Shown: positions 2,245 to 56,070, counted from the stretch's first letter. The stretch: 64,000 nucleotides of DNA from Candidatus Aegiribacteria sp. (GCA_013138965.1 WTBT01000050.1:4658-68657), one strand, 5' to 3'. Numbers and translations are program-made. The notes: a model not told the origin generated them from the letters alone.

Positions 2245-2507
2245 GCTGGTAACGAGCACCCTTGCATTAATTACTAACACCACGTTTCCTTCTTCTTTCA
2301 CGATGATTTGTCAAACTGAATGAGTTACTCCGGTGGCTATCCCAGTGTATTACTTCCACAACCCTCCTGCTTGATTATAGTGGCTACTGATGCTTCGCTT
2401 CCCAAAATTGGTTGCTTGTATTTCGCTTGACAATAGAGTTAGGTAAAAGCATAGATAAAAGTAGGGAGATTCATTTGATTCAGGCTTGGTGCTGAGAGTA
2501 GTTATGT

Positions 2508-2516
2508 TGGTATAAT
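2508..2516 (+). promoter_or_regulatory. Extended -10 promoter element (TGgTATAAT) upstream of the methyltransferase operon
   Basis: tggtataat at 2508-2516 matches the extended -10 consensus TGnTATAAT, about 53 nt upstream of ATG 2569. A TTGACA at about 2424-2429 is a second, weaker candidate. Both sit in a 277-nt AT-rich gap after the upstream ORF. Confidence 0.4.
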
Positions 2517-2568
2517 CGGGTTGCGTAGAATTGTTATTTGTTCTTTTAAGAGAGAAGAGAAGCTATCA

Positions 2569-3876
2569 ATGCATGAAGCCATGCAAGCATTCAATGAGTA
2601 CAATGTCAAGCTTGCCAATTTGTATCAAGAGATTGTTTTTGGGAAATTGCATATGCAGACTGAATTGCAGGTGACTGCTGATATGGTTGCTGCTGAGTTA
2701 CGACGCATTATCCCGATTGACCGTTTGCGAAAGGCGGGGAGTTTCTTTACCGGTGATGTTCTGGCAGGCAGGGCAGCTGGGTCGGTTTCAGATCATGGGT
2801 TGATTCTGGATCCTGCTTGTGGAGCAGGGAGCCTACTAACTGCTTTTACAAAGAAACTTCCAATAGAGACTACACTTGCTGATACCTTGCGAGAATGGGG
2901 AAGGATATTGTACGGGTGTGATCTCTTCCCGGAATTTGTTGAGGCTACCAAATTGCGTATCATCCTGGAGGCTATAAGCAGAGGAGTTCAACTCAACGGG
3001 GATTCTCTGGATGAGCTAAAGGATTTACTGTATGGAATTAAACAGGGTGATGGTCTTGGGTTGGTTCCTCCAGAAACATGTACTCATGTATTGATGAATC
3101 CTCCATTTAGATTAGTTCCTGCTCCTGCAAACTGTCAGTGGGCAAAGGGTAAACTGAATGAAGCTGCTCTTTTTGTAGAATACTATTTACAACGGATTCC
3201 AGAGAATTGTACTTTGATTGCTATTCTACCTGAAGTGTTGAGATGTGGCACTCGATACAAGAAGTGGAGAACCTGGCTCGAAGTGAATATCACTGCAGAA
3301 GTGATGCTCAATGGGCAGTTTGATACTAAAACAGATGTTGATGTATTTGTGTTCGCTGCATCAAGATTGTCTACACAGAAACCGAGTATGAATAGGATTG
3401 ACTGGAAAACACAAATTGATGAACCGACAGATCTTACCGTTGGTTCTTTGTTCGATGTGAGGGTTGGTTCTGTGGTGCCTTACAGGGATGAGATTGCAGG
3501 AGACGAATATCCTTATGCTTGTCCTTCGAACTTACCTCGCTGGAGAATTGTAAGCGAGTTCGAGAATCGCTGCGGGTACGCCGGTCGAAAGATCAATCCT
3601 CCATTTGTGGCAATCAGGCGGACTTCCAGTCCATCCGACAGAGAGAGAGCGGCAGCAACAATTGTTACAGGCAAAGAAGCGGTTGCAGTGGAGAATCATC
3701 TAATTGTTGCATGTCCTCGCAAGGACGGTTTGCGTGCATGTAAAAGGCTGCTGAAACTGCTGCGAAGCGCTGAAACCAACAGGTTTCTTAATCAGCGAAT
3801 GCGTTGTCGTCATCTGACTGTTGGCGCTGTAAAGGAGATCAATTGGCAGGAGGAGATTCATGCCGGAACTGATTGA
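2569..3876 (+). CDS. N6-adenine DNA methyltransferase, gamma-class motif order (Eco57I/TaqI-like) with a C-terminal putative target-recognition region
   Basis: SAM-binding motif I is LDPACGAGSLL. Catalytic motif IV is NPPF (VLMNPPFRL, codons at 3097-3108). Motif I precedes motif IV. The track ORF starts at TTG 2521, but ATG 2569 is preferred given the promoter at 2508-2516. Confidence 0.8.
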   Translation: MHEAMQAFNEYNVKLANLYQEIVFGKLHMQTELQVTADMVAAELRRIIPIDRLRKAGSFFTGDVLAGRAAGSVSDHGLILDPACGAGSLLTAFTKKLPIETTLADTLREWGRILYGCDLFPEFVEATKLRIILEAISRGVQLNGDSLDELKDLLYGIKQGDGLGLVPPETCTHVLMNPPFRLVPAPANCQWAKGKLNEAALFVEYYLQRIPENCTLIAILPEVLRCGTRYKKWRTWLEVNITAEVMLNGQFDTKTDVDVFVFAASRLSTQKPSMNRIDWKTQIDEPTDLTVGSLFDVRVGSVVPYRDEIAGDEYPYACPSNLPRWRIVSEFENRCGYAGRKINPPFVAIRRTSSPSDRERAAATIVTGKEAVAVENHLIVACPRKDGLRACKRLLKLLRSAETNRFLNQRMRCRHLTVGAVKEINWQEEIHAGTD

Positions 3877-6091
3877 AAGTTTGCCATTTGAAATAGAAGC
3901 ACGCGTTCCTATTCAGCTTGGCCGTGAGAGTATTTCCAGTTCGGTGGTGGCGGTATCCGAACTGGTTAAAAATGCATACGATGCAGATGCAAACAAAGTG
4001 AATATTGAATTTCACAATCTTGGTCAACCAGATGCCTGGCTTCTGATTCAGGACGACGGTGACGGAATGGATTCTGGTTCATTTGCCAATCATTGGATGC
4101 GTATTGGTACTGACTCCAAGACGGACGTATCAAGGTCAAAAAAGAACAGGATACTTACTGGATCAAAGGGTCTTGGACGGCTGGGTATTGATCGATTGTG
4201 CAAAACTCTCACAGTACGGACAAAAACATCTTCCACAACAGATACAATTGAGGCCAGAATAGATTGGACTAAGTATGAACTAAAAGGTAAAACTCTTTCA
4301 GAGATAAAACACAACATTTACCGGATTGCTTTGGGAGAAACCGACTCATTTCCCGAAGCTGATGACCACGGCACTAGTCTCATAATGAATGACCTGAAAG
4401 ATGGGTGGTCTAAGGATTTCCTGAGAGATCTCAGGCAGGAGTTGAGCCTCCTTGTGTCTCCATTTGAAGGCATTGAAGATTTTGCTATTGAATTAAAAAC
4501 AGGCATCAATGAACTAGACGGTCCATTGTTATCAACTGTAATGCTCGAAAGTGCTGTGTGGAAACTTGACTTTACATTGACTGAAGATGGTCAGGTTACA
4601 GCAAGAGCTTCATCTGCTCTTTACGGTGAAGATTGTTTTGACGGCCCACACGCCTGGCAAGAATGGTTAAAGGATAGAAGTGATGAACCTTGTTGCGGAG
4701 GGTTTAAGTTAGTTTTGTATTTTATTCCGGCAGATGCGCCGGGATTGAAGAAACTCAGTTTCTCACGGAAGGACTGGAAGACTTTCATGGATGCGAATAG
4801 TGGTGTACGTATCTATCGTGATAAATTCCGAGTTCGTCCATATGGAGAGCCCACAGGAAAGGGTGACTGGCTGGATCTTGGTCTGAGGCGTTCTAAGAGA
4901 CCAGAGGGTGTTACTCAGAAAGGTTGGGTTATTGGACCACACCAGGTTGTTGGCGCGGCATTCATCAGCAGAGAGAGTAATCCTGAGCTTGTTGATCAGA
5001 CTAATCGTGAGGGAATTGTTGAGGGAGAAGCGTTTTTTGACTTGCGTGTATCTGTTCTAAAGGCAATCACTTTTTTCGAGCAGAAAATACACGAAAGTGC
5101 TGTTAAACGTAAAAATACGAAACCAGCTGATAAAACCAAAGATATGTATGCCGCTGCCCAGGACGAATACCGGAAAAAGTTGAACAATGTCCTAAAGAAA
5201 GCATCTGCTCAGAATCAAAACACAGACGATTTTAAGGCACTCCTTGCTGGTTTTTCAAATGTGGTAGCTGCTGCTGATGATATGCATAGTTCAACTGAGC
5301 AGATAATCAAGGAGATACAAGCAGACAAGGACACAATGGCCAATCTTGCGTCATTGGGTATCCTGACAGTTTGTTTTGGTCATGAAGCAAAGGAATACAC
5401 TAATCTTGCAGCAGCGAATGCAGTTCTTCTCCTGCGAGCGTACCAACAAGGTCATTTTCATATGATGGCTCCGCACGACGATGAATTTATGAACAAGATT
5501 GAAATAATTCAGGATAGTACAGAATTCATAAAAACATTTGCTGGATTCGCATTGGGTAATGTACGCCCTGACAAGCGAAAGCGAACTAATGTCAACTTGA
5601 CAAAAGTAATTAATTCGGTGTTCATAGCAATGGATAAGTCACTTGAACGACAAAACATCGATATTGATTGCTCAGGAGTAGAGGTAAACATACCACCGGT
5701 AAGAGCATTTGAGATTGATCTTGAAAGTATCGTTGTCAACCTGTTAACAAACTCAGTTACTGCCCTTACAGATACTCCGGCAGAGAAGAGAAGAATTGTT
5801 GTTGGGTTGAAGCAGGTTGATGTAGACGTCGAGTTGACTTTTTCTGACTCTGGATGTGGCATCGAAGCTGGAACTGAAAAGCAGATATTCCATCCGATAT
5901 TCAGCACCAAGCGAGATAGGAAGGGTAATGTTGAGGGAACAGGGATGGGACTTGCGATCGTGAAGACTTTCGTTGAAGATCATTCCGGTGGATCAATCAG
6001 GGCTATTCCAAATGGGTCTCTTGGTGGAGCCGAGTTTATCATTCGGATTCCTATTGCTCCACGAAGAGGAGGCAGTGGAAAGGATGAGTAA
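3860..6091 (+). CDS. Soluble histidine kinase with an additional N-terminal MORC/Hsp90-type GHKL ATPase module
   Basis: N-terminal GHKL boxes: ELVKNAYDADA (N box), DDGDGMD (G1), GSKGLGRLG (G2). H-box-like FGHEAKEY, with the His codon at 5381-5383. C-terminal HATPase_c boxes: VNLLTNSVTAL (N), DSGCGI (G1), IFHPIFSTK (F), GTGMGLAIV (G2). No hydrophobic TM segment seen. RBS aggaggag at 3848-3855. The ATG overlaps the MTase 3' end by 17 nt. Confidence 0.75.
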   Translation: MPELIESLPFEIEARVPIQLGRESISSSVVAVSELVKNAYDADANKVNIEFHNLGQPDAWLLIQDDGDGMDSGSFANHWMRIGTDSKTDVSRSKKNRILTGSKGLGRLGIDRLCKTLTVRTKTSSTTDTIEARIDWTKYELKGKTLSEIKHNIYRIALGETDSFPEADDHGTSLIMNDLKDGWSKDFLRDLRQELSLLVSPFEGIEDFAIELKTGINELDGPLLSTVMLESAVWKLDFTLTEDGQVTARASSALYGEDCFDGPHAWQEWLKDRSDEPCCGGFKLVLYFIPADAPGLKKLSFSRKDWKTFMDANSGVRIYRDKFRVRPYGEPTGKGDWLDLGLRRSKRPEGVTQKGWVIGPHQVVGAAFISRESNPELVDQTNREGIVEGEAFFDLRVSVLKAITFFEQKIHESAVKRKNTKPADKTKDMYAAAQDEYRKKLNNVLKKASAQNQNTDDFKALLAGFSNVVAAADDMHSSTEQIIKEIQADKDTMANLASLGILTVCFGHEAKEYTNLAAANAVLLLRAYQQGHFHMMAPHDDEFMNKIEIIQDSTEFIKTFAGFALGNVRPDKRKRTNVNLTKVINSVFIAMDKSLERQNIDIDCSGVEVNIPPVRAFEIDLESIVVNLLTNSVTALTDTPAEKRRIVVGLKQVDVDVELTFSDSGCGIEAGTEKQIFHPIFSTKRDRKGNVEGTGMGLAIVKTFVEDHSGGSIRAIPNGSLGGAEFIIRIPIAPRRGGSGKDE

Positions 6092-6737
6092 TCAAAAAAA
6101 AGTTCTCTGGATTGACGAGGAACCAAGAGCTCTCTCTACCTTTACTGTATTTCTTCAGGAGTGTTTTGGTGACGAAATTACTGTTATTCCTAAAGCACCT
6201 GAAAGAAAGCTGGGTGAAATGATTGACTATATTTCCAATCAGCAGAACCTGGTGGCTCTTGTGGTTGATCAGCGGTTGAAATCCACTGGAATGGCGGAAT
6301 ACTCTGGTATAGACCTGATCGAGAGGGTTCGAGGTTTATTCCCAATACTTCCAATCTACATTCTGACAAATCATCAGGATGATATTGGTGATTTGGATTA
6401 CCAGGTTGAATATGTTTTAGAGAAAGATAATCTCTATGATGATAGCTACATTAAGACCTTGAAGGCGAGAGTTCGCCGTCATGTTGATGTTTATGATGTT
6501 ATCATGTCAGACAGAGAAATCCGTTTTGATGAATTGCTTAGAGCATCGCTTGAGCGTGAGTTGAACTCTGATGAGATGAAAGAAATGCAAGAGCTTGATT
6601 TTCGAAGATCGAAGCCTGTTCTTGCCGATGAGTTCATATGGGCTGAGAAGCTGAAGGAAAAACTTGACCAGCAGTCTGAGTTGCTGGATCGTCTTCGTCA
6701 GGATATTGAATCTAATCAGAGTAAACCGGAGAAGTGA
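6084..6737 (+). CDS. Stand-alone response-regulator receiver (REC) domain protein with a C-terminal coiled-coil tail and no DNA-binding output
   Basis: Receiver signature residues are all present: acidic pair in LWIDEEP, phospho-acceptor-like Asp in LVVDQRL (GAT 6267-6269), Thr in YILTNH, Lys in YVLEKD. The last roughly 90 aa are charged heptad-like sequence. ATG 6084 overlaps the kinase stop (atgagtaa). The track start at 5973 is rejected because it lies inside the kinase gene. Confidence 0.65.
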   Translation: MSNQKKVLWIDEEPRALSTFTVFLQECFGDEITVIPKAPERKLGEMIDYISNQQNLVALVVDQRLKSTGMAEYSGIDLIERVRGLFPILPIYILTNHQDDIGDLDYQVEYVLEKDNLYDDSYIKTLKARVRRHVDVYDVIMSDREIRFDELLRASLERELNSDEMKEMQELDFRRSKPVLADEFIWAEKLKEKLDQQSELLDRLRQDIESNQSKPEK

Positions 6738-7378
6738 TGACAATCGATAACCTGTTTTACCCAACCATTAAGCGGCGATCAACTTATATAGGCAAGGGTG
6801 ATGGGCAGGTCTCTCGCTATTCTGATTATCGCGATGAGATTCAGGAAGACTGTGGGAATCGCTGTGTCTATTGCGACATCAAACATGCAGAGATTGGCTA
6901 TGAGGGGATGCATCTGGACCATTTCCGCCCACAGAAACACTTTCCTGGACTAACTGATAACCCAACCAATCTGGTTCTTGCCTGTCCAAAATGTAATAGC
7001 TTTAAATCGTACAAGTGGCCTGCTTTCAAGAGAATAAATGCGTGTTCACATGAAGGAAAAACTGGTTTTATTGACCCTTTCGAAGAGTCTCGAAAAGAGT
7101 ACTTTGCAGTGAGTACTGATGGGTCTCTGCTCCCTCTTATGGATCCCGCAGAGTATTTAATTATACTGATGAAACTAAATCGAACAGCCCGTATTCAAGT
7201 GCGCCGCAATCGTATCATCCGACATGAGATGAAAAAGTTGTCAGGAAAGCTTGAGAACTTGATCTCTGATCTTATTACAGACTGGAAAGCTGAACGAATC
7301 TCTGCTGATGAGGCTATGCGTTCTATGGAACAGCACTGCTTGAGACTGGTTTCACTAGCGGAAATGATGACTGTCTAG
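6734..7378 (+). CDS. HNH endonuclease (resembles the PtuB/TIGR02646 style from memory) with a helical C-terminal extension
   Basis: CGNRCVYC...HLDHFRPQKH...NLVLACPKCNSFK gives the Cys4 zinc sites plus the catalytic D-H and Asn of the beta-beta-alpha-Me fold. GTG 6734 or ATG 6737 overlaps the REC stop TGA (6735-6737). Confidence 0.8.
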   Translation: MMTIDNLFYPTIKRRSTYIGKGDGQVSRYSDYRDEIQEDCGNRCVYCDIKHAEIGYEGMHLDHFRPQKHFPGLTDNPTNLVLACPKCNSFKSYKWPAFKRINACSHEGKTGFIDPFEESRKEYFAVSTDGSLLPLMDPAEYLIILMKLNRTARIQVRRNRIIRHEMKKLSGKLENLISDLITDWKAERISADEAMRSMEQHCLRLVSLAEMMTV

Positions 7379-7783: not shown

Positions 7784-8614
7784 TCAGGAGAGCAGACGAT
7801 CAAGGTAGTGAATGAACAGTTCACGATTCCATCCATTAAGTGTACTGCGTTCTTCCATGGAGAGGAATGGGTACACATCGCGAGCAGTCTTATCCCAGTT
7901 CAAAGACTCGATCCTGCAGCTGAGTTGATCTCTGAGCCATATGCGGTTAACATTGATGCCCTGGCGCGCCCACGGTCCGTTCTGGTCGATTGCCGTGGAA
8001 AGCAGCTCCATTTCAGGATGGATATCTCTGGAGCAGAACCAGAGGAAATCGAACCAGTCTCTCCCTTTAACCCATGACCTGCACAAAAGTGCATGGCACT
8101 TCAAAGCGAACGATGAGGGGAGGTCCATCACTGAAACCTCGAAGGGTATGGGGAAGTCTATGAATGCGGTTTGGATGTGAGCTCCCTCAGGGGGATTTAC
8201 ATCAACTTCAAGTCTGATCCTTAAGAAAGGAGTTCTGCCATCAGATGAGCTTCCGAGAATAGAAGTATCAATCAGAAGAAGCTTGCGGATAGATGAGCGT
8301 TCCGAGCCTTCAGTGCGCAGTTCAATATCGAGACCGTAATTGGAAAAGGTTCTGAGGAGCGCTTTTTCGCATAAAGACCATGAGAATGAGTTGTCAGGTT
8401 CCGTGAGTACAAAATCGAGGTCTTCGGAGAACCTTGGCAGAGCGTGAATAAGCCGAAGTTCTGTTCCACCGTGGAACACCGCCCTGCTGAAAAAATCGTT
8501 CACCGAGAGGGAATAAAGAGCAATTTCCTGCATGATCTCCCGGAGAGCGTGAACGCGGGTCTCCCGGGAAGTTGAGCCATATTCCTCAAGTCTTGATTCA
8601 ATAATGTTTTTCAT
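7784..8614 (-). CDS. abiEii: AbiEii/AbiGii-family nucleotidyltransferase toxin (type IV TA / abortive infection)
   Basis: FHGGTELRLIHALPRFSEDLDF matches the DUF1814/AbiEii NTase signature. The start is taken at MKNIIESRLEEY (ATG 8614-8612), which overlaps the upstream stop as ATGA. The track start at 8773 lies inside abiEi. Confidence 0.75.
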   Translation of the reverse strand: MKNIIESRLEEYGSTSRETRVHALREIMQEIALYSLSVNDFFSRAVFHGGTELRLIHALPRFSEDLDFVLTEPDNSFSWSLCEKALLRTFSNYGLDIELRTEGSERSSIRKLLLIDTSILGSSSDGRTPFLRIRLEVDVNPPEGAHIQTAFIDFPIPFEVSVMDLPSSFALKCHALLCRSWVKGRDWFDFLWFCSRDIHPEMELLSTAIDQNGPWARQGINVNRIWLRDQLSCRIESLNWDKTARDVYPFLSMEERSTLNGWNRELFIHYLDRLLS

Positions 8615-9264
8615 GACCCTCCATCCAGGGCGCTGGCGCACCGGGAGAGGAAGTTCCGAGCTTTTGCTGAACGGTAGATGAGAGAGATCTCTCTGAGATC
8701 GTCTGTATTGATTTCGCTGAGATTCGATACATCCGTGCGTAGAGCCGCACAGAGTCCAAGAATCCCCTCCCACTTGAGTCTGCGGTCATATACTAAATCA
8801 CCGATTGCTCTCTCGGGAGATGCAACCAGGGCATACCCGTTCGGAAGGGTTTCCCTCAATACACACTTGTAGAAATCACTATCGGCAACAGGGATGCGTG
8901 TATATTCAAAACTACCCAGCGCATTCCTGAATGTTCTTTCTCTTCCGCGGACAATACAGCTTTGAACGAGCATAGGCTCTTCCTGCAGCCATCCAAAGTA
9001 GGCAAGGGCTGATTCCATAGTAACGTAGCTTTCAGGGGCAAGCCTGTTCGCGATACTCAAACTGCTGATCTCCATTCGTGATAAAGCCGGACTGAGTAAA
9101 TACATTCCGCGCTTCAGGTGAATGAACTCATCACTCTGCAGTGCCCTGTTCACCAGCCCCCACCGACGGGCGTGACTTCCCCCCGCCAGACGAGTGATAA
9201 TTGAAGGGGTGATGATCATTCCGGCGTACTCTGTGTTCAGCACCAGTTCTGTCAGCGTCTCCAT
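8611..9264 (-). CDS. abiEi: AbiEi-family antitoxin / transcriptional regulator (N-terminal wHTH)
   Basis: Sits immediately upstream of AbiEii with a 4-nt overlap. The N-terminal segment GMIITPSIITRLAGGSHARRWGLVNRALQSDEFIHLKRGMYLL resembles the AbiEi_4 wHTH. Confidence 0.6.
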   Translation of the reverse strand: METLTELVLNTEYAGMIITPSIITRLAGGSHARRWGLVNRALQSDEFIHLKRGMYLLSPALSRMEISSLSIANRLAPESYVTMESALAYFGWLQEEPMLVQSCIVRGRERTFRNALGSFEYTRIPVADSDFYKCVLRETLPNGYALVASPERAIGDLVYDRRLKWEGILGLCAALRTDVSNLSEINTDDLREISLIYRSAKARNFLSRCASALDGGS

Positions 9265-21360: not shown

Positions 21361-22659
21361 TTAAATATTCTCATGAAGCGATTCCATTAACCATTGCCAT
21401 GCAGGAAGAATTTCAACTGTCCTCCCATCCCGCTCAAATGTACTTCTATCATCCGAGGTTATTACAATACATGATGAGGCTCCTGCGTTGGCTCCGGCTT
21501 CAAGAAGACTGTCATATTCCCTCTGCTGATTTGTTTTATCCAGCGCCCAGCAAACCTGTATTGCTTCCCGGCTGTTCTCATCTCCATCTGCTATGAAGTC
21601 GCACTCCCCTCTTCCTCTATAGTAACAGAATTTGCGTCCTCTCCTGAGAAGCTCAGTGGCAACAACGTTTTCCAGAAGTAATCCGAGGTTCTCGGAATAT
21701 GCAAGGGGAATAGCTGCAAAACCGTGATCCATCAGATATACCTTCCTGGGGTTCATTCTTCTTTTATGTGCTGATGGATCGCAAAGTTCACCTGTATGTA
21801 TAAAAAATGCCTCTTCCAGATATGACAGGTAAGCTGATATGGTCTTCTTGCTTGATGATATCCCTTCCGACTTGAGTTTCCCGGTAAACCTTGAAATAGA
21901 GAACAAAGTCGAAAATGAATGGAGAAAATACTCCATCAGCCTTTGCATGGTTGGAGCAGCGTGAATATCGAATCTTTCAACCATATCGTTAAAGAAGACA
22001 GTTCTGAAGTAGGATGATAGAAGCTCACTCCTTCTGAGATTTGATTCCGCAAGAACGACCTCCGGAAACCCGCCTGTCTCCATGTATGATCGAAGCGCAC
22101 CCGACAGCTTTCCGCTCTGCTCCGTGTAAAGCATTGTTCTATCCATATCAATACCTTTGAAGTCCAGGTACTCAGTAAAAGATAAGGGCAGCATTCGGCG
22201 GCTTGTGTGCCTTCCGCGAAGCTCAGTCGACACTTCACGCTCCAATAACCCGGCGTTACTGCCGGAGACAACGATATGGTAACGTCTTCTGTTACAGAGT
22301 GTCCTGATCACCCGGCTCCAGTCAGGAAGACTCTGCACCTCGTCAAGGAAAAGATGGGTCAGTGGTCGATCTGAAAGCTCACTGTGAGCCCGAAGAAACA
22401 GTTCCATATCCCCAGGCACAAGAAACGTGAGCCTGTAGTCCTCGAAGTCAACCAGAAGACTTGAACCCCCCGAGCTTTCCGCCTTTGCAGCCATCTGATA
22501 CATAAGAAATGTCTTCCCAGACCTTCTCGCCCCCACTATAGCAAGCACTGAACCCTTCGGCGCGATTTCGGAGGATGGGCTTCGCCGAACAATAAGGCCG
22601 GGAACAGGCTCTCTTCCGAGCCACTCGGATACTATTGCTTTTGCAGCTTCATAGTTCAT
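21361..22659 (-). CDS. AAA ATPase of the AAA_14/DUF4143 type
   Basis: Walker A is IVGARRSGKTF and Walker B-like is HLFLDEVQ. RBS GGAGGAAAC before ATG 22659. The track N-terminal extension to 22911 is antisense to a gene remnant and is rejected. Confidence 0.7.
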   Translation of the reverse strand: MNYEAAKAIVSEWLGREPVPGLIVRRSPSSEIAPKGSVLAIVGARRSGKTFLMYQMAAKAESSGGSSLLVDFEDYRLTFLVPGDMELFLRAHSELSDRPLTHLFLDEVQSLPDWSRVIRTLCNRRRYHIVVSGSNAGLLEREVSTELRGRHTSRRMLPLSFTEYLDFKGIDMDRTMLYTEQSGKLSGALRSYMETGGFPEVVLAESNLRRSELLSSYFRTVFFNDMVERFDIHAAPTMQRLMEYFLHSFSTLFSISRFTGKLKSEGISSSKKTISAYLSYLEEAFFIHTGELCDPSAHKRRMNPRKVYLMDHGFAAIPLAYSENLGLLLENVVATELLRRGRKFCYYRGRGECDFIADGDENSREAIQVCWALDKTNQQREYDSLLEAGANAGASSCIVITSDDRSTFERDGRTVEILPAWQWLMESLHENI

Positions 22660-22792
22660 TGTTTCCTCCGAGAAACAATATATAGTGAAATTGTTTCTCC
22701 AACAACCCCGGAGTTCTCTCTGCAACCCGGTTAAACCTTCTTGAACGGTTCCTCCGTTTAAACACATAGGTGACTTGTGTAAGCCATAGCCA

Positions 22793-22913
22793 ATGACCCT
22801 TGACATTCTACATTCAACGGAAAATCTTCCAATTGATGTTAAGTCCGGAGCAGCTGGAAGCTTGAAAAGCCTGCCGGAACAGAAACTGGAGTTTTTGCCA
22901 TTATATAGCACTG
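22793..22913 (+). pseudogene. Collapsed, multiply deleted copy of the promoter and 3' end of the ATPase gene at 50675-52003
   Basis: 22793-22810 is identical to 50616-50633 (atgacccttgacattcta). 22811-22872 is homologous to 51777-51840, with 35 nt identical at 22838-22872. 22865-22913 is identical to 51905-51953 (49 nt). The junction falls at the shared octamer aaaagcct. Confidence 0.6.
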
Positions 22914-46441: not shown

Positions 46442-48032
46442 TTTCGTCTTCCTTTCCCGTAAGAAGGCGGTCAGGCTGAACCCTGATTCCCCTGAGCTTT
46501 GTAAGATCGGGGGTTATAAGGTCGCGGATATCCTCGATCCCCATGGCAAGCATCGCCATTCTATCGAGGCCGAGTCCCCACGCGATCACGGGTACATCTA
46601 TACCCAGAGGCAGGCAGACTTCAGGCCTGAAGAGACCTGCGCCTCCGCCTTCAACCCATCCGAGAACCGGATGAAAGATATGCATCTCAACCGAAGGTTC
46701 TGTGAAAGGGAAATACCCGGGAAGGAATTTGTAATCGGAAGCACCCGCTATCTCCTCAGCGAACAGTTTGAGAAGTCCCAGAAGATGCCTCAGATTGATC
46801 TGTTCACCAAGCACGATACCTTCCACCTGAAAAAAATCAGGAAGGTGTGTGGAATCAACCTGATCGTACCTGAAACATCTTGCGATGCCGAAATATTTCC
46901 CCGGAATATCGGGATTCGATGCCAGGGTCCTTGCTGACAGCGCGGTTCCCTGGGATCGGAGAATAGTCTGAAGGGACTGTTCACGGCTGAAACTGTAACC
47001 CCAGCCCCTTCCGCCGGTGTTGCCACCGTTCTCATGAACTTCTGCGACCCTCTCCTCCAGTTCCCGCTCAGGAGGGGGTACTTTGATACCGTCACTCAGA
47101 AAATAGACATCGTGGATATCCCTTGCGGGATGGAACTGGGGCATGAAAAGGGCGTCATTATTCCAGAATTCGTTTTCGGCCAGTGAACCTCGCATTTCGG
47201 TGAAACCCAGTGCCATGAAGCGTTTTCTGACCGTATCAAGAAACTGCCTGTAGGGATGCAGCCTTCCTGTATGTATCTGTGAAGGCGGGATATCCAGTTG
47301 ATACCTTCTGAATTTAGCGTGCCTCCATGAACCGTCAGCCAGAATCTCCGGAGTAATGGCTCCGATAGTGACACTCTCCTTCGCCGCTCTGAGAGCGACG
47401 CTCCCCTTTTCAGTGATATCCAGTACCCTGGTTACCACTACATTAACCGTGAACTCGGCTCTGCTTTTTCCCCTTTTCGGGCTCCTGTCGTTAATAATTA
47501 AAACTACATCCTCAGGCAGCCGGGCCATCTTGAGTTCACCACCGTCTGCGAGAGGTTCATAAACAAGGTCCCAGACTTTCTGGAATACTGTCTCTTGCGG
47601 CCCGCAGCTAAGATGAATGCCACTGGCATCCTTTATAAGATGACCGGTTTTCATAAGTGATCCGAATGCGCTGCCCCAGCGTCCCCTGTCGAAGACAGTA
47701 TTCTTCTGAATATCCTGCAGAGACCCTGCGCCTCCGGCCACTTCCCTCAGCATTGCCAGTTCAGGTGTAACACCCGCTTCAAGGTTTGCTATTCCCAGGG
47801 GTCCAAGCTCTACGAATTCTTCCTCATCCCTCGATGCCTCCCTGACAAGTTCTCTGGACAGAAGCCATTCGGCTGCCCTTCTGAAAGAACCCTCATCGGG
47901 AAGATCACTTCTTTCGATTATTTCCTTATCAGATGATTCCCCGTGTTCTTCGAGGTAGACAAGCAGCTTCTCCTCGAGTGGATGCAGATCTCTTTCCTCG
48001 GTCACTTGTTTCCTTTCTACCGGATCTTCCAC
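46434..48032 (-). CDS. pheS: Phenylalanine-tRNA ligase alpha subunit, archaeal/eukaryal-type (long form)
   Basis: FHPARDIHDVYF, FRYDQVDSTH and GLGLDRMAML class II motifs. 532 aa with N-terminal wHTH-like repeats. Confidence 0.85.
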   Translation of the reverse strand: MEDPVERKQVTEERDLHPLEEKLLVYLEEHGESSDKEIIERSDLPDEGSFRRAAEWLLSRELVREASRDEEEFVELGPLGIANLEAGVTPELAMLREVAGGAGSLQDIQKNTVFDRGRWGSAFGSLMKTGHLIKDASGIHLSCGPQETVFQKVWDLVYEPLADGGELKMARLPEDVVLIINDRSPKRGKSRAEFTVNVVVTRVLDITEKGSVALRAAKESVTIGAITPEILADGSWRHAKFRRYQLDIPPSQIHTGRLHPYRQFLDTVRKRFMALGFTEMRGSLAENEFWNNDALFMPQFHPARDIHDVYFLSDGIKVPPPERELEERVAEVHENGGNTGGRGWGYSFSREQSLQTILRSQGTALSARTLASNPDIPGKYFGIARCFRYDQVDSTHLPDFFQVEGIVLGEQINLRHLLGLLKLFAEEIAGASDYKFLPGYFPFTEPSVEMHIFHPVLGWVEGGGAGLFRPEVCLPLGIDVPVIAWGLGLDRMAMLAMGIEDIRDLITPDLTKLRGIRVQPDRLLTGKEDENA

Positions 48033-50380
48033 AGTTCAACATCCTCAATAAGGAACATGCCCTGCTGCGGTCTGGGTACGGCATTCTCTCCCTTGAGAAC
48101 CGCGCCGCAGTCAGGACAGACATATGTATTCGCGGTAAGTTCAGCATCACATTCGGGACATATCAACTGCAATTTATCATCAATGTACATCATAAGTTCA
48201 AGCCCGGAAACATAACCGTTTCCGTTACTGTCCGCATCTCCTCTGGAACCCTGAAGCAGGATCGGAGTGAGAATTCTTTCACTGACACTCAGATCCTCTC
48301 TGGCTGCTGTCAGGATCAGAACATTGCTTCCGGCGGAGAAATCGTTCACAAAACCACCTGAATGACATGCGTCGAAGAAAAAGAAAACCGGTGATACCGC
48401 GAGGGAGTCAACCAGGGATGCTATCTGGTCATCCGATATCTCATCATCGTAAAGACAGAGGTATTCGTTGGCTGAATCCGGTTCCTCGCTTCCTCCCGAA
48501 CCGGGATGCGACTGATCACCATGACCACTGTAGAAAACAATGACCTTATCCTCGGGTCCTGCAGAACTCAGCAGAGAGGATATCCCGCTTATGAATTCTT
48601 CGGAAGTGGCCATGGCGTCCACCAGGAGAATGACATGATCAGGCTCCACTCCCTGCTCTTCGATCAGGAAATCGTACATTTCAACAGCGTCCATGCTTGC
48701 CCTGTTCAGAATATCAGCTGACGAGGGGTAGCCGCTGATCCCTGCGGAAATTGCCCAGATCTCAGCCTCTGGTGATGGTTCCGCCAGACTTGTTCTCTCA
48801 ATTCTGTTCACCTTCAGTTTAAAAGGTGTCTCTCCGCTTCTATCGTACAGGTAGACAGTAATACCGTATTCGGCGCTGTCTTCGACGTATACTTCTACAG
48901 CCTCATCACCTGCCGCATCGACATTGCTTAACCATCCCTCGGCGATCAGATCGAAATCAGGGCCCGAGACGAACAGGTCAAGATCAACTTCCCTGTCCTC
49001 ACCGGTGAGCCCGATATCCAGAATGGTTTCCGATTCGGCCTGAACCGTGAAATACTCCGCGGGTGAGTCCTCGCTGATCACACCGCTGTACTCTCCTTCC
49101 ATCTCTACGGCGTCAGCCCGGGCTATCCTTACGGTAGCGTAACCTCTTGTCTGGATATCACTGAAGAAGGGATCTATCCATACGGTATCTCCCTCCGAAA
49201 CGTACAGCAGGAATTCCTCATCCCCCCGTGCGGAAGCAAACGTAATAGCGGGTTCACCGGCTCCCCTGAAGACTTTTACATCTCCGTCACGGGTTTTCTC
49301 GAAATTCACGCTTATCCTGAACAGCCCTCCATGAATCGGAGAGAACCCGACAGGCAGGTTGCTTCCGGAACCGATATTCACAACTTCTTTGACAGGTATA
49401 AGGTTTGAAAGCGGACCTGGCTCTCTTGTGAACATTTCGTAGGAAACGGTTTCGTTCTCTCCTGTATCGAAAAGAATCACATCCGCAACGACATCATCAC
49501 CTGTCGGCGGAAGCAAGAGTGTCTCAATTGAGGCATAGGACTGTGAGCCCATCAGGTATTCACCGGATGCGTCCCGGATAAGGAGGTCTATATCCGCTCC
49601 GGAAGAGAGTATTGCAAGGTCAAGGAAGAAGCTGGATTCGTGCTCAGGTATGATGTATCTATGAATCTCTCCCGGAGCAATCGATTCTGTCAGGCCAGAG
49701 GGATCGAATTCGGGAAACTGCCCGGAAGGCTCAACCGAGAACTTATATTCGCCTGATCCGCTTTTTCCGTATCTGCTGACGACAGCAGTCACGACTTCTC
49801 CGGGAAGAACCGAAACGGTAACGGTTTCAAATCCTTCAAATGACATACTGCTTCCCCAGAGGCGCATACTCGTGCCGTATACTTCAAGATCGATATCGGT
49901 TCCTCCGGTACCCTCGAGTCTGAATGTCCAGCGGCCCCGGGAGCCTGGAGTAAAAGTGAACGTTTCCGCCATCACATTTCGGCCCAGAGCGCCCTCAACA
50001 TCATCACCGGGGAACAACTCAGCGGGAGATACCTCCTGAACATCGATCTCAGCGGAAAAAGAGGAATAACCATCAACACAAACCAGTTGAACGTAAAACC
50101 AGTAATCGGTGAAAGCTGACAGTATCATATCACTGCCGGATTCTGACTGGCAAAGAATATCACCGTTTTCATCAAAGGCTTTCAGTTGCATCCCATCTGA
50201 CACGGATAATCTCAGACAGACGTAATCATCCTCAAGAATACGTACCCATCCCTCCCCCGAGGAAACATCAACTACCGCCTGCTGACCTGCGGATATCGTC
50301 TCGATTTCCGCAGTATTGGGAAGCACAACGGACAGGATTACCGATGCCAGAAAAATTGATAACATGAAAGCCTCCATCAC
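48017..50380 (-). CDS. Secreted multi-domain protein: PPC-like repeats plus a caspase-fold (C14) peptidase domain plus a C-terminal zinc ribbon
   Basis: Signal peptide. Repeated ...DLDL.V/I... pre-peptidase-like modules. His-Cys dyad context VIVFYSGHGD and FFFFDACHSGGF. C-terminal CPECDAELTANTYVCPDCG. Confidence 0.65.
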   Translation of the reverse strand: MMEAFMLSIFLASVILSVVLPNTAEIETISAGQQAVVDVSSGEGWVRILEDDYVCLRLSVSDGMQLKAFDENGDILCQSESGSDMILSAFTDYWFYVQLVCVDGYSSFSAEIDVQEVSPAELFPGDDVEGALGRNVMAETFTFTPGSRGRWTFRLEGTGGTDIDLEVYGTSMRLWGSSMSFEGFETVTVSVLPGEVVTAVVSRYGKSGSGEYKFSVEPSGQFPEFDPSGLTESIAPGEIHRYIIPEHESSFFLDLAILSSGADIDLLIRDASGEYLMGSQSYASIETLLLPPTGDDVVADVILFDTGENETVSYEMFTREPGPLSNLIPVKEVVNIGSGSNLPVGFSPIHGGLFRISVNFEKTRDGDVKVFRGAGEPAITFASARGDEEFLLYVSEGDTVWIDPFFSDIQTRGYATVRIARADAVEMEGEYSGVISEDSPAEYFTVQAESETILDIGLTGEDREVDLDLFVSGPDFDLIAEGWLSNVDAAGDEAVEVYVEDSAEYGITVYLYDRSGETPFKLKVNRIERTSLAEPSPEAEIWAISAGISGYPSSADILNRASMDAVEMYDFLIEEQGVEPDHVILLVDAMATSEEFISGISSLLSSAGPEDKVIVFYSGHGDQSHPGSGGSEEPDSANEYLCLYDDEISDDQIASLVDSLAVSPVFFFFDACHSGGFVNDFSAGSNVLILTAAREDLSVSERILTPILLQGSRGDADSNGNGYVSGLELMMYIDDKLQLICPECDAELTANTYVCPDCGAVLKGENAVPRPQQGMFLIEDVELWKIR

Positions 50381-50674: not shown

Positions 50675-52003
50675 GTGAAAAGAATGCTTGAAAAACAGTT
50701 GCTTGAATGGAAAGAATCAAAGCGGCGGAAACCGTTAATTCTGCGTGGTGCACGACAGGTTGGCAAAACATGGCTTGTAGAAAACATTCTTGCTGGAGAA
50801 TTTGAAAACTATGTTAAAATCGATTTAGAGAAGATGAATAATCTTCACCTCTATTTTGAAGGTGAATTGGACCCCAAAAAAATAGTGAACTATTTGGAAT
50901 TGTCGACAAAACCAATCACTCCGGGGAAAACGCTTCTCTTTCTTGATGAAATCCAGGCATGCCCCAGGGCGATTACAGCGCTGAGATATTTTTACGAGGA
51001 TATGCCCGAACTCCATGTTGTTGCTGCCGGTTCCCTGCTTGAATTTGCTTTTGGAGAAATATCTATTCCGGTTGGCAGAGTTCAATACATGCAAGTTTAC
51101 CCTATGTCATTCTATGAGTATCTCAATGCAATTCGCGGAGAATCATTAGCCCAAGAATCTCTTAAACACCCGGGCATAGTGGATGAACAGGTTCAAAATA
51201 TGCTCCTGGAAGAATTACGCAGATATTTCTTTATCGGAGGAATGCCTGAATGTGTTGAGACTTTCAGTGATACCGAATCAATGATTGAAACCTTCAGAGT
51301 TCAATCGGAAGAAATAGAATCATACAGAGATGATTTTTCAAAATATAAGCCGCATGTTGACCCTGCCTGTCTTGATGCAGTTTTTTTGAACTGTGCTAAA
51401 AGTGTTGGAGACCAGCTTATTTATACAAAACTAAATGATGGTCACACCGGTCAGACAAATCGCAAAGCATTTGATCTGCTGAATAAAGCCGGAGTTCTAA
51501 AAAAAATACCTTCCGCAAGCCCATCAGGTCTCCCGCTTGGGGCAACTGCCAATCAAAAAAAGTTCAAGGCATCCATATTGGATATCGGGCTTATGCAGAG
51601 ACTCTGCAGAACTCCTGTTGATCTTGAACTTCAGCGAAAGGATTTACTGACAATCTTCAGAGGGAAACTTGCTGAACAATATGTTGCTCAGGAACTCCTG
51701 GCTTATCACGGACCCGATCTTTTCTACTGGTCGCGAGATGCCAGGGGAAGCAGTGCCGAGGTTGATTATCTTCTGGCATTCAACGGGAATATCTATCCAA
51801 TTGAAGTTAAGTCCGGAGCAGCTGGAAGCTTGAAAAGCCTTCACATGCTGCTGCAAAAGTATCCCAACTGTCCCCGGGGACTTGTTTTGTATGACGGTAC
51901 ATATAAAAGCCTGCCGGAACAGAAACTGGAGTTTTTGCCATTATATAGCACTGGCGGAATGTCAGGAGAACGGATTTCTGATTCACAATATCCTGTTTCT
52001 TAA
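50675..52003 (+). CDS. AAA ATPase of the DUF4143 type
   Basis: Walker A is RGARQVGKTW and Walker B is LLFLDEIQ. C-terminal DUF4143-like region. Confidence 0.75.
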   Translation: MKRMLEKQLLEWKESKRRKPLILRGARQVGKTWLVENILAGEFENYVKIDLEKMNNLHLYFEGELDPKKIVNYLELSTKPITPGKTLLFLDEIQACPRAITALRYFYEDMPELHVVAAGSLLEFAFGEISIPVGRVQYMQVYPMSFYEYLNAIRGESLAQESLKHPGIVDEQVQNMLLEELRRYFFIGGMPECVETFSDTESMIETFRVQSEEIESYRDDFSKYKPHVDPACLDAVFLNCAKSVGDQLIYTKLNDGHTGQTNRKAFDLLNKAGVLKKIPSASPSGLPLGATANQKKFKASILDIGLMQRLCRTPVDLELQRKDLLTIFRGKLAEQYVAQELLAYHGPDLFYWSRDARGSSAEVDYLLAFNGNIYPIEVKSGAAGSLKSLHMLLQKYPNCPRGLVLYDGTYKSLPEQKLEFLPLYSTGGMSGERISDSQYPVS

Positions 52004-52311: not shown

Positions 52312-53766
52312 CTACTGAATCGTCCGCATTCTTCCGTTTACGCAGGATATAACCGTTCGCTGAGTTTCATATGGATTGATCCGATTTCCATTATCCAGGA
52401 AGAGAGAATCCCCGTAAGAGCTTATTCTGCAGTACACAATGTAATTCGACTCCCTGCCTGTGAACATGGTTACTGCTTCGTTCAATCCGTTTCTGAACAC
52501 ATAAGCTCCTCGGAAACTGTCAGGTATGGCCAGAATAAGAATGCTGTCAGCATCGTATTCCGAAACAGATTGTACAATACTGGAACAGAGCCTGCCTGCC
52601 TGGCGCCAGTTCCCATTTGACCTGTGGAGAAAAATCCCCTGAACAAAAATCAAAACCACAAGAATAACCAGACTTGTTCTGCTTTCTTTGAACAGGGAGA
52701 CAGTTGCGACCGTGAGAAAACCTGCAGCGAACACACCAGGCAGATATAGGAACCTCTCGGACTGAGTATCAAAAAGAGAAACCTTCATGCTCAGTACAGG
52801 AAGAAGAGATACAAAAAAACATCCGATCAGTAGAAGAAGAATCCTTTTCTGCTTCCCGGTTGCCTTTCTATGCAAAGCTATTCCAAAAGGGACCAACAAT
52901 AGAAGGAGGGTAATGGGAACCAGCAATGGAAAGGATAGAACTACTTGTCTTAGAGAGACGGGGAGTGGAGGAATGAATACTCTGAATGTATAGCGTATAA
53001 GATTCTCAGGAATATTAACACCTGATATATCGAGAAACCCTCCGGACCTCAGATTGGAAAAGAAACCGTTACCTGGAATGATTCGGAGAGCAAGATAGAC
53101 TCCCGTAATTAACAGACAAATTAGTAGAAGCCGAAGGTTTCTGCGAAGATTCTCTCTGCTTTTTGCGGCACTGTAGATAAGGAAAATTCCCCAGAGTAAC
53201 GGAGTAATTATTACGCTTTCTTTAGCCATCAGCCCTGCAAAGAACAGAAAAAGCGCAAGAGTTGCCTGAAATATCGATGGATTATTCAACTGGCGGTAGT
53301 AGAAAAACACGGAAAGCAGAGACAGAGCTGTTGCTATAATGTCTGCTCTTCCCGAAATCCATGATACAGATTCAGAGTGAGAAGACAGAGACAAAAACAG
53401 CACACCTGTCAACAATCCGTATAAGCAGGGTTTCCGGAAAGATACTCGGTACATCATAACTCTGAACAATAGAAACACAGCAATGCCTGCCAGGCAATGC
53501 CAGAACAGATTGGTTATATGAAAACCGGTAGAGTTGATACCCCATATACTGTAATCAAAAAGATATGAGAGGGTAGTCGCAGGGCGAAAGAATGCCGTCC
53601 CGTTTTCCCCGCCCCAGCTCGAATAGTAACCCTCGCTGGCTACTCGGTTAACAAGAACAAAGTCATCTGAAACAAAACCTGCCCCCACAATATTTGAGAA
53701 GCACAAAAATACTGTGACAATAAGAATCGAAATCGCTGTTACATGACACTGTTTATCTGACAACAT
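52312..53766 (-). CDS. Polytopic membrane protein, GT-C-like (ArnT/PMT-type) glycosyltransferase candidate
   Basis: More than 10 hydrophobic helices followed by a soluble C-terminal domain. No motif-level confirmation. ATG 53766 is preferred over 53829. Confidence 0.4.
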   Translation of the reverse strand: MLSDKQCHVTAISILIVTVFLCFSNIVGAGFVSDDFVLVNRVASEGYYSSWGGENGTAFFRPATTLSYLFDYSIWGINSTGFHITNLFWHCLAGIAVFLLFRVMMYRVSFRKPCLYGLLTGVLFLSLSSHSESVSWISGRADIIATALSLLSVFFYYRQLNNPSIFQATLALFLFFAGLMAKESVIITPLLWGIFLIYSAAKSRENLRRNLRLLLICLLITGVYLALRIIPGNGFFSNLRSGGFLDISGVNIPENLIRYTFRVFIPPLPVSLRQVVLSFPLLVPITLLLLLVPFGIALHRKATGKQKRILLLLIGCFFVSLLPVLSMKVSLFDTQSERFLYLPGVFAAGFLTVATVSLFKESRTSLVILVVLIFVQGIFLHRSNGNWRQAGRLCSSIVQSVSEYDADSILILAIPDSFRGAYVFRNGLNEAVTMFTGRESNYIVYCRISSYGDSLFLDNGNRINPYETQRTVISCVNGRMRTIQ

Positions 53767-55297
53767 CTCTCCCGTCGAATCGCCAGAGAATAACAGTTCC
53801 TGTGGCCCCCGCCCATCGCTGGAGTTCATCTTCCCTGTGTACTGTAACCCTGTTGGGCAGAGACAAGCTCTGTGCTATGTCAGGAACAAGAAGATCCCAC
53901 GAAGTATAATCCTCGGTGTTCCCCGGACCGGTCCAACTGACTACATAATCTACTCCCATATCCAGCAGATACTCCTGAAGTCTCTTCTGCTGAATAGATT
54001 CTGCCAGGTCTACGCTTCCGGCAAGGCCCTCCATCTGCACTACTCCTCCGCGGAAAAAATAGGCAAAACTACCTGCTCTATCTCCTATCGCTATTAGTAC
54101 AGAATCCCCCATTGAAGAATTCAACTCTTCAGCAATGTGCATGTTCCTGACTCTGAAATCATCGGGATTCTCTCCACCGTAATGCCATCCCCACAATACT
54201 GCCAAGAGAATAGAAAGCAAAAGAAGAAATGCGGAAGAAACATTTAACAGCCTTTTCGGAATCCTCAAACAGTCACACAGTTTCTGCAGGAGAAATGGAA
54301 GGCAGAACGCACAGAAAAGCACAGCAGGGTAGGCATACCAGAACCACAATCGCCAACGGGACAAAAACAGTTGTGAGATTGTGAAAAGAATCAGAAATAC
54401 GCTTACAACTCTTATTGATGGCTTACTCCGTTTAATAAAGAGAATTACAAAAGACAGAGCAAAGAACAGCAGGAACAAACCCCAGGGGCTGCGGAGCCCC
54501 ATTGGATCAGAAAGCAGAAACAACTGCTTTGCAAACAGAGTATTCAAACCTGCTCCAGAGGCTTTGATGCCTCCGGACACAGACATCCACGAACCAAAGA
54601 ACAGTTTGTTCGCAACAAGAAGAAGTATGCCTGCGACTGCCCCGGGAAGAAACACAATAGCAGCGGAAAGCCTTCCATTCTGCTTCATTGCCCATATGCC
54701 TGTCAACACTGCGAGAAGTGCCGCATCAACTCTGGCAAGCCCAACCAGAGCAAGCACACCTCCCAGCACGAGGAGAGATCGAATTGAAGTGGACCGGGTC
54801 ACTCCATCAAGTAAAACCAGGGCAAGCATAGCCAGCGGTATGAGAATTGATGTTTCCATGGCGAGATGAGCGAAATCCCTCAGATATCTGAGAAGAAGAA
54901 GCAATACAAGTAGAACCACCACTGAAGAGTACTGCCTGCTCATTGTTCTGACAACGATAATTCCTGCGAGGAACAGCAGAAAGGAGGAGAGAACACTTAC
55001 TGCTCGAAGAAAGCATATCTGATCGGGAACAACAGAACGGGTTGCTATAAGAATTCCCATCCATAGCGGATGAAAGCCATTGGTAGCAGAAACACCATCG
55101 AAAGAAATGATACCTTCTTCTGCTGCATGCCTGGAAATGGTTGCATAGAAAAAGGCATCATCCTCAAAACGACATACCAGATTGTCTGATGATGCTGACA
55201 AAGCAGTGAAAACATCCAGAATTACCCAAATGGCTAATACAGCCATGAGGCTTAGTGGGCAGTACTTGCGAAGTACCCCCGAAGCTGGATTTCCCAC
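53753..55297 (-). CDS. Polytopic membrane protein, GT-C-like candidate
   Basis: Same architecture as the neighbour and overlaps it by 14 nt. GTG start. Confidence 0.4.
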   Translation of the reverse strand: MGNPASGVLRKYCPLSLMAVLAIWVILDVFTALSASSDNLVCRFEDDAFFYATISRHAAEEGIISFDGVSATNGFHPLWMGILIATRSVVPDQICFLRAVSVLSSFLLFLAGIIVVRTMSRQYSSVVVLLVLLLLLRYLRDFAHLAMETSILIPLAMLALVLLDGVTRSTSIRSLLVLGGVLALVGLARVDAALLAVLTGIWAMKQNGRLSAAIVFLPGAVAGILLLVANKLFFGSWMSVSGGIKASGAGLNTLFAKQLFLLSDPMGLRSPWGLFLLFFALSFVILFIKRSKPSIRVVSVFLILFTISQLFLSRWRLWFWYAYPAVLFCAFCLPFLLQKLCDCLRIPKRLLNVSSAFLLLLSILLAVLWGWHYGGENPDDFRVRNMHIAEELNSSMGDSVLIAIGDRAGSFAYFFRGGVVQMEGLAGSVDLAESIQQKRLQEYLLDMGVDYVVSWTGPGNTEDYTSWDLLVPDIAQSLSLPNRVTVHREDELQRWAGATGTVILWRFDGRDVVR

Positions 55298-55931: not shown

Positions 55932-56070
55932 ATCTCCCTGAAAGTGAATAAATCTCTTCCGTAAGTTCCCAGACAAATGCAAGCGCTTCTGATTTCGATA
56001 TTCCGGCTGCTTCCTCTGTATCATCTTCAACGAATTGAGAAACAGTTACTTTCTTTCGATTCAGTTTCAT
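55873..56070 (-). CDS. Small upstream partner ORF (putative antitoxin)
   Basis: GGAGGG RBS before ATG 56070. 65 aa. Overlaps the NTase start by 59 nt in another frame. Confidence 0.35.
   Translation of the reverse strand: MKLNRKKVTVSQFVEDDTEEAAGISKSEALAFVWELTEEIYSLSGRYDVESRLQRNVISITRQQS

Follow-up and report, generated by a model that had tools for sequence, protein, structure and literature searches.

A stretch of 64,000 nucleotides (nt) from Candidatus Aegiribacteria sp. (GCA_013138965.1, WTBT01000050.1:4658-68657), here called the window and numbered throughout from its first letter, carries at positions 2450-7378 what is very probably an Ambrosia-family anti-phage cassette, a single operon of four genes that encode homologues of AbrA, AbrB, AbrC and AbrD. 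It is assigned to this family because the four products are homologous to those of Ambrosia, are encoded in the same order and align with them at residues that have been mutated in the experimental system. A sequence-only reading of the same DNA had held that no described system places a His-Asp phosphorelay between a methyltransferase (MTase) and an HNH nuclease; this can no longer be maintained, as Ambrosia matches all four proteins, and the operon thus corresponds to an already named system. The finding itself is genuine, and the family to which it belongs has been named, experimentally validated and, in 2021, partly foreshadowed; the cassette of the window is a four-gene form without AbrR from a distant lineage. 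Its features are the following.

2450..2568, + strand: conserved upstream leader (sequence, and alignment with the same region in relatives that are 85 % and 78 % identical)
2569..3876, + strand: AbrA-like gamma-class N6-adenine MTase, 435 residues (BLASTP to AbrA, weak Pfam and PADLOC matches, motifs)
3860..6091, + strand: AbrB-like soluble histidine kinase, 743 residues (Pfam, BLASTP to AbrB, AlphaFold2 model, Foldseek, PDB profile search)
6084..6737, + strand: AbrC-like receiver protein, 217 residues (BLASTP to AbrC, AlphaFold2 model, Foldseek, weak Response_reg match)
6737..7378, + strand (GTG 6734 possible as start): AbrD-like PtuB-type HNH endonuclease, 213 residues (BLASTP to AbrD, Pfam, PADLOC, NCBIfam)

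Relationship to Ambrosia

Ambrosia is an anti-phage system of Pseudomonas aeruginosa with the components AbrR-AbrA-AbrB-AbrC-AbrD (van den Berg et al., bioRxiv 10.1101/2025.09.30.679545), of which AbrR is a HipB-like XRE protein, AbrA an N6 MTase, AbrB a sensor histidine kinase/HSP90-like ATPase, AbrC a receiver (REC) protein and AbrD an HNH protein. In PAO1 it protects against Pbunavirus and Mesyanzhinovviridae phages, host toxicity was not seen, and according to the preprint defence is lost when conserved residues are mutated in any of the predicted domains, the plasmids listed being AbrA T72A, AbrB N40A, AbrC D60A and P52A, AbrD H60A and K83A, AbrR E45A and ΔAbrR. When mNeonGreen replaces abrA or abrD its expression is very low in the absence of phage and becomes strong on infection, and phage from a host that carries AbrA remains sensitive to the system. 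Ambrosia has been reported in 537 RefSeq instances, all of them gammaproteobacterial and 76 % from Pseudomonadales (10.1101/2025.09.30.679545).

Reference sequences were taken from supplementary Table S1 of the preprint, in which AbrB is available as its 388 N-terminal residues, and all four proteins of the window have their counterpart there by BLASTP. The kinase is 47 % identical to AbrB over those 388 residues (1e-113, 337 bits) and the HNH protein 47 % identical to AbrD (8e-59, 172 bits), whilst the MTase, which lies directly upstream of the kinase, is 37 % identical to AbrA (8e-73, 222 bits) and the receiver 33 % identical to AbrC, collinear over its full length (6e-32, 102 bits). These are pairwise scores and as such a different measure from the bit thresholds that the authors set for their hidden Markov models (100 for AbrA, 500 for AbrB, 150 for AbrC and 200 for AbrD, with none for AbrR). 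Mutated residues align as well, AbrB N40 with N38, AbrC D60 with D62 and AbrD H60 with H62, and the kinase and AbrB have the same Pfam pair (HATPase_c_3 and HATPase_c) and a similar length (~747 residues for AbrB). The likeness therefore extends over an N6 MTase, a kinase of ~745 residues, a REC protein of ~210 residues and a PtuB-like HNH protein of ~213 residues, all four encoded on one strand and in unchanged order, at 33-47 % identity. The system has no name in PADLOC v2, NCBIfam, Pfam or PHROGs, which return generic MTase, HATPase, PtuB-like HNH and AbiE matches only.

One difference is that the P. aeruginosa system has AbrR and that the cassette of the window, like nearly all of its relatives, does not. 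There is no open reading frame (ORF) of more than 40 residues on either strand of the 324-nt spacer at 2245-2568, the close relatives are also without an XRE gene, and when upstream ORFs were clustered across loci no recurrent family was found. XRE-type ORFs (HTH_31/HTH_3) were seen upstream only at the Pseudomonas loci L018 and L063, that is at two of about 55 loci with a window-type MTase upstream. AbrR is thus outside the conserved core, and it belongs to the description of the system rather than to its operational criteria, because the detection thresholds of the authors list AbrA to AbrD only. The two also differ in their hosts, that of the window being uncultivated and non-proteobacterial whereas the preprint reports Gammaproteobacteria only.

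Organisation and proteins of the cassette

The cassette proper (2569-7378) consists of four genes on the plus strand in which every junction overlaps, and the overlaps of 17, 8 and 1-4 nt noted previously were all confirmed from the ORF table and the sequence. The MTase gene ends at 3876 and the kinase gene starts at 3860 (17 nt), the kinase stop at 6091 and the receiver ATG at 6084 share the 8 nt atgagtaa, and the receiver stop at 6737 overlaps the start of the HNH gene by 4 nt if this is GTG 6734 or by 1 nt if it is ATG 6737. The catalytic and phospho-site residues are all present in the four products, the codons having been checked by translation.

For the MTase the likeliest start is ATG 2569, not the alternative TTG 2521, because the gene calls of the closest relatives are also of 435 residues. 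Numbered from this ATG, FFTG lies at residue 59, DPACGAG at residue 81 and NPPF at residue 177, and these motifs, the last two of which had been read as those of a gamma-class N6-adenine MTase, were verified by translation. Profile searches gave a weak match to Pfam N6_Mtase and PADLOC matches to mad2 (4.5e-8) and MTase_II, and nothing was found among PDB sequences at E<=1. Upstream of 2521 there is an extended -10-like element (TGGTATAAT, 2508-2516), and an RBS-like (ribosome-binding-site-like) run (AGAGAAGAGAAG) stands just 5' of ATG 2569. Alignment with the 85 % and 78 % identical relatives shows that about 110 nt 5' of this ATG are kept, including TGGTA(T/C)AAT and the RBS-like run, and that homology of the leader starts at about 2450. 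A generic promoter scan called no sigma-70 site on the plus strand upstream of the MTase, and shuffled sequences had more sites than the region itself. The one promoter-like site that had been proposed is therefore called so because of this conservation and the extended -10, not because of a consensus match.

The kinase is predicted to be a MORC-type ATPase module, comprising a GHKL domain and a transducer, joined by a long coiled coil to a histidine-kinase core of canonical DHp/CA type. Pfam places HATPase_c_3 at residues 28-146 (2e-22) and HATPase_c at residues 618-733 (6e-24). In the AlphaFold2 model (67-sequence alignment, pLDDT 81) a MORC-like GHKL ATPase occupies residues 1-200, with N38 encoded at 3971-3973, followed by an alpha/beta transducer-like domain at about 209-390, long coiled-coil/DHp helices at 390-566 (~170 residues) with H508 encoded at 5381-5383, and a C-terminal catalytic HATPase_c domain at 575-735. 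Foldseek matches the N-terminal half to the ATPase modules of MORC3, MORC2-DNA, SMCHD1 and Hsp90 (430-486 columns) and the C-terminal half to the class I histidine kinases YF1, ZraS, CpxA and HK853, and a PDB profile search of the kinase agrees. The N-terminus also has weaker PADLOC REase_II matches and is tied by NCBIfam to the BbrUII/HgiDII restriction enzymes. H508-E509, N38/D65/G69 and N627/N631/D663/G667/G693-G697 are invariant or nearly so in the 67 homologues, in keeping with the soluble dual-GHKL histidine kinase with a phospho-site histidine that had been described from the sequence. The MORC-like input half is not discussed in the Ambrosia preprint.

The receiver has a REC domain of (beta-alpha)5 fold at residues 5-140, with D62 encoded at 6267-6269, and D11, D62, T95 and K114 are invariant in 75 receiver sequences; the phospho-sites of both relay partners are thus intact, H508 being invariant in its alignment as D62 is here. 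The domain is divergent, Pfam Response_reg being matched only weakly (E 0.016). It had been described as REC-only with all signature residues; the residues are indeed present, whereas a conserved helical tail of ~75 residues had been overlooked. In the AlphaFold2 model (75 sequences, pLDDT 84.8) this tail consists of a helix at 143-157 and one 50-residue helix at 162-212, and past residue 113 there is no strand or beta-hairpin. Foldseek finds receiver domains only, for example the XynC REC domain (root-mean-square deviation 2.7 Å, 136 columns), and no helix-turn-helix (HTH) family of Pfam is matched at E<=1 by either the window receiver or AbrC of P. aeruginosa. A receiver profile run against 1.84 billion clustered proteins gave 464 representatives at E<=1e-10, and the full-length members listed are almost all of ~204-237 residues without an added domain. 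In the model, then, a DNA-binding domain or winged helix was not detected and the tail appears to be purely helical, whereas the preprint says that AbrC has a winged helix; such a structure argues against a direct transcriptional output.

The fourth protein is an HNH nuclease, as had been thought, with the layout CxxC...DH62...N...CxxC, in which the catalytic His62 is encoded at 6920-6922. There are two zinc-finger pairs of CxxC type, and the C-terminus carries a helical extension. It matches Pfam HNH (1e-9), PADLOC PtuB (3e-18) and the NCBIfam models TIGR02646 and PtuB, and the nearest solved structures are PtuB of Septu and of retron I-A.

Conservation and modularity

The kinase family is conserved at full length, with at least 1824 matches at E<=1e-5 among 8000 candidates scored, of which the closest named relative is 85 % identical and comes from a Candidatus Aegiribacteria metagenome-assembled genome (MAG). 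In a scan of species-representative genomes 416 loci had a kinase relative, and 80 of these were fetched; gene order was counted by tblastn with the window proteins at the 65 loci that have at least 1.5 kb on both sides. The order MTase-kinase-REC-HNH is found at 52 of the 65, in 45 cases with an MTase of the window type and in seven with a different upstream MTase family, whilst at the remaining 13 the MTase is swapped in family or position or the effector is swapped. Manual reading showed that most of this remainder have an MTase with DPxxGxG/NPP[FY] motifs directly upstream or an MTase downstream of the HNH gene, the order kinase-REC-HNH-MTase being that of L053, L078, L079 and L082, the last of which is a Bacteroides finegoldii plasmid. 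At L079 a type I HsdR-like helicase stands upstream of the kinase.

The loci are spread over more than 12 phyla, with Gamma-, Beta- and Alphaproteobacteria, Verrucomicrobiota, Planctomycetota, Chloroflexota, Nitrospirota, Desulfobacterota, Myxococcota, Bdellovibrionota, Spirochaetota, Poribacteria, Lentisphaerae/Kiritimatiellia, Calditrichota and Bacillota represented as well as two archaeal MAGs. The nearest relatives have the same four genes in unrelated flanks, and in one of them the cassette lies between GmrSD_N/MmeI-like MTase/SNF2 genes and McrBC-like genes. This excludes chance adjacency and indicates a mobile, co-conserved unit in defence-island contexts. A search of a phage genome collection gave only one partial match to the kinase, and carriage by phage is thus without support.

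Gaps within the cassette are tight, with a median of +12 nt between MTase and kinase, -7 nt between kinase and REC (51 of 64 overlap) and -11 nt between REC and HNH (43 of 62 overlap). Similarity to the window co-varies among kinase, REC and HNH across 44 complete loci (Spearman 0.55-0.65), whereas the MTase scores barely follow the other three (0.25, 0.37 and -0.04); the measure is a crude one, and its result fits the MTase swaps that are observed. From these sequence comparisons kinase, REC and HNH appear to co-evolve as a translationally coupled block with which the MTase is exchangeable.

The effector can also differ. In four loci (L060, L067, L068 and L073) an unrelated protein of 160-235 residues takes the place of the HNH protein and the C-terminal region of the receiver changes too. 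Such a joint change of receiver tail and effector is what one would expect if the tail contacts the effector, although it is seen in a few lineages only. L077 (3943-8376), from a Nitrosopumilaceae MAG, has a kinase relative, a receiver of 185 residues and a protein of 200 residues followed by a Dcm-like C5 MTase, receiver and effector both differing from the window type. Neither the replacement effector of the four loci nor the 200-residue protein has a Pfam, PADLOC or PDB sequence match, and a guess at HEPN found no support.

The four variant cassettes (L060 10237-11515, L067 2332-3739, L068 5714-6978 and L073 10237-11509) come from Chloroflexi and Micrarchaeota MAGs and have a different MTase, a kinase and a receiver to which an alpha/beta region is added at the C-terminus; the sequence of their replacement protein begins MWANAYLEQARSDW. 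On the Klebsiella variicola plasmid pBM374-1 (L081, 3700-8569) the kinase is annotated as three coding sequences, being frameshifted or decayed, whilst MTase, receiver and HNH protein are still intact.

How the cassette may work

It is quite possible, and we propose it tentatively from the predicted structures, that the cassette is controlled post-translationally. In such a scheme the MORC-like module would, in an ATP-dependent step, engage DNA or a phage cue and thereby switch the kinase core to autophosphorylation at H508, from which the phosphoryl group would pass to D62 of the receiver and alter its helical tail. The tail of the phosphorylated receiver may then act on another protein, of which the PtuB-like HNH nuclease is the likeliest candidate; activation or release of this partner would license DNA cleavage. 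The MTase would be needed for specificity or marking and would not be a simple means of self-protection. The sequence-only reading had the MTase mark self DNA, which is contradicted in the homologue, where phage grown in the presence of AbrA is still sensitive and an MTase point mutant loses defence. The wider proposition, that a phosphorelay gates the nuclease in this way and that the kinase-REC-effector block is ancient and pan-bacterial, occasionally archaeal, and takes varied MTases and effectors, is possible as a whole and somewhat doubtful.

Several points weigh against this interpretation. Membership of the Ambrosia family is drawn from homology at the identities given above, and ΔAbrR and AbrR E45A are among the defence-abolishing mutants of P. 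aeruginosa, yet the window cassette has no AbrR. The abrA and abrD reporters of the preprint are induced on infection, and its authors propose transcriptional control by AbrC (10.1101/2025.09.30.679545). The post-translational scheme is built on a predicted structure in which no DNA-binding domain was detected, rather than on a contact between REC and HNH, and the mutants made in the homologue do not include the H-box histidine or the C-terminal catalytic domain, His-Asp phosphotransfer being putative.

According to the transcriptional alternative the kinase senses infection and the phosphorylated receiver, with AbrR where there is one, is a transcription factor that induces the MTase and the HNH protein, the latter then attacking DNA that possibly carries the methyl mark of the system itself. 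The infection-induced mNeonGreen replacements speak for it, as do the loss of defence with AbrC D60A and with the MTase mutant and the sensitivity of pre-methylated phage. For the window it would seem rather unlikely, given that the receiver family has no detectable DNA-binding domain (two helices in the tail, REC-only Foldseek matches and no HTH in Pfam even for AbrC) and that an AbrR-type XRE gene is so rarely found upstream. Furthermore, receiver and kinase lie inside the same overlapping operon that they would need to induce, the PtuB-like HNH protein has no recognisable reader of modified bases, and the host would be methylated as well, yet no toxicity was seen. The reporter signal is real evidence for expression control, and this could run via AbrR, which is absent from most members. 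The structure of the receiver favours a phosphorelay-gated nuclease over transcription without proving it, and what weight these two readings leave falls to mixed or other schemes.

Two simpler explanations are much less probable. MTase and HNH nuclease together are a common restriction-modification (R-M) composition, and the MTase_II match of the MTase, the weaker REase_II match of the kinase N-terminus and the BbrUII/HgiDII link in NCBIfam would suit an ordinary type II R-M pair beside an unrelated or merely regulatory two-component pair; this is extremely improbable and already largely refuted, as all four genes are conserved together across many phyla, with their order and overlapping frames retained, and the homologue needs both the kinase ATPase and the receiver aspartate whilst methylation by AbrA gives phage no protection. 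The copy in this genome could also be a remnant that has decayed or does not function, or a signalling operon with a housekeeping role outside defence, as the disrupted kinases of at least two relatives, the K. variicola plasmid and L056, would suggest. This also is very unlikely, since the four frames are unbroken and no catalytic residue is missing, the leader upstream is conserved, the cassette adjoins AbiE here and sits in a GmrSD/McrBC island in a relative, and the homologue defends against phage.

Genomic neighbourhood

The cassette is carried on a low-GC island that adjoins an AbiE module. That the region is AT-richer than its surroundings is right in direction and modest in degree, GC being 0.435 in the cassette and 0.482 in the remaining window. 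The AbiE module, which had been recognised immediately downstream and is confirmed by PADLOC, is convergent with the HNH gene, and a terminator scan called no terminator after the latter. The neighbouring features are listed here.

22-2244, + strand: ORF of 740 residues, directly upstream of the cassette and within the same low-GC stretch
7784-8773, - strand: AbiEii toxin (PADLOC 9e-81)
8611-9264, - strand: AbiEi antitoxin (PADLOC 1e-48)

The 740-residue ORF has no match in Pfam, PADLOC, NCBIfam or PHROGs, and it was rejected as a part of the system, as a homologue stands beside the cassette in none of the 80 loci; it could be an unrelated, uncharacterised gene of the island. In the 85 % identical relative (L083) a truncated AbiEii fragment lies upstream of the cassette.

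Elsewhere in the window a second low-GC stretch runs from 50 to 56 kb (GC 0.43-0.44), and at its edge is a gene (48017-50380, - strand) for a protein of 787 residues that combines a caspase (Peptidase_C14) domain with a zinc ribbon at the C-terminus. Two adjacent ORFs of ~510 residues without a Pfam match lie within this stretch (52312-55297, - strand), and a DUF6036 nucleotidyltransferase-like ORF is found at 55485-56030. The window also encodes two AAA_14+DUF4143 ATPases, at 50675-52003 (+ strand) and 21361-22911 (- strand).

Significance

The distribution of the cassette indicates that Ambrosia is no peculiarity of Pseudomonas or of the Gammaproteobacteria but a widespread, horizontally mobile four-gene module, the conserved core of which lacks the XRE regulator that the sole experimental study counts as part of the mechanism. 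A receiver without a detected DNA-binding domain and an input half of predicted MORC type sharpen the question of how a nuclease and a methylase are coupled to a two-component relay, and they bring out a mismatch between the published transcriptional model and the predicted structure of the receiver. Should the relay act on the nuclease directly, restriction-type immunity would be under a novel kind of control, and MORC-like DNA sensing joined to signalling would have a bacterial precedent.

Comparison with other known systems

A number of other systems have parts in common with the cassette. Like Septu (PtuA/PtuB) and retron I-A (Ec78) it pairs a PtuB-like HNH nuclease with an ATPase; it differs in having a GHKL/MORC-like kinase and a receiver in place of the ABC-type ATPase PtuA, and an MTase in addition. 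Septu was rejected for want of a PtuA-like gene, the matches to PtuA models falling on the HNH protein and coming only from fusion models that contain HNH. Detocs (DtcA kinase, DtcB buffer receiver and DtcC receiver-effector) also uses a His-Asp two-component relay for phage defence, whereas the window has one receiver that is not fused to an effector, a separate HNH protein, a MORC-like kinase sensor and an MTase; no Detocs model is among the PADLOC matches and the single receiver has a helical tail only, on which grounds Detocs was rejected. MADS (mad1-mad8) was set aside as well, the weak mad2 match being the only one to a mad model in PADLOC, and so was BREX type 2, key components of which are missing by PADLOC.

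MORC and paraMORC GHKL ATPases have been linked to R-M operons, including some with HNH nucleases (Iyer, Abhiman & Aravind 2008, PMC2292703). In its GHKL domain and transducer, and in its linkage to an MTase and an HNH protein, the window kinase's N-terminal half resembles these and the BbrUII/HgiDII-type enzymes. The difference is that here the MORC-like module is fused to a full histidine-kinase core, not to a helicase or nuclease, and would signal to a receiver. The DefensePredictor paper names a HATPase/REC candidate in a figure legend only, which gave no useful comparison.

The foreshadowing of 2021 was the prediction that kinases of the form HATPase_c_3+HEF_HK+HATPase_c are paired with Response_reg_2 in R-M neighbourhoods (Bellieny-Rabelo et al., PMC8011034). 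These families (PF19191 and PF19192) also combine a soluble HATPase_c_3+DHp+HATPase_c kinase with a stand-alone receiver among MTases and nucleases, whilst differing in that they are a bioinformatic prediction and are linked mainly to C5 MTases, Vsr and HNH_2. An identity with them was rejected, as no match to PF19191 or PF19192 was obtained at E<=1 with the window proteins or with AbrC, and the Pfam domains precomputed for 120 kinase and 97 receiver homologues include neither. On the strength of these profile comparisons HEF_HK/Response_reg_2 would appear to be a sister family in which the same theme is found.

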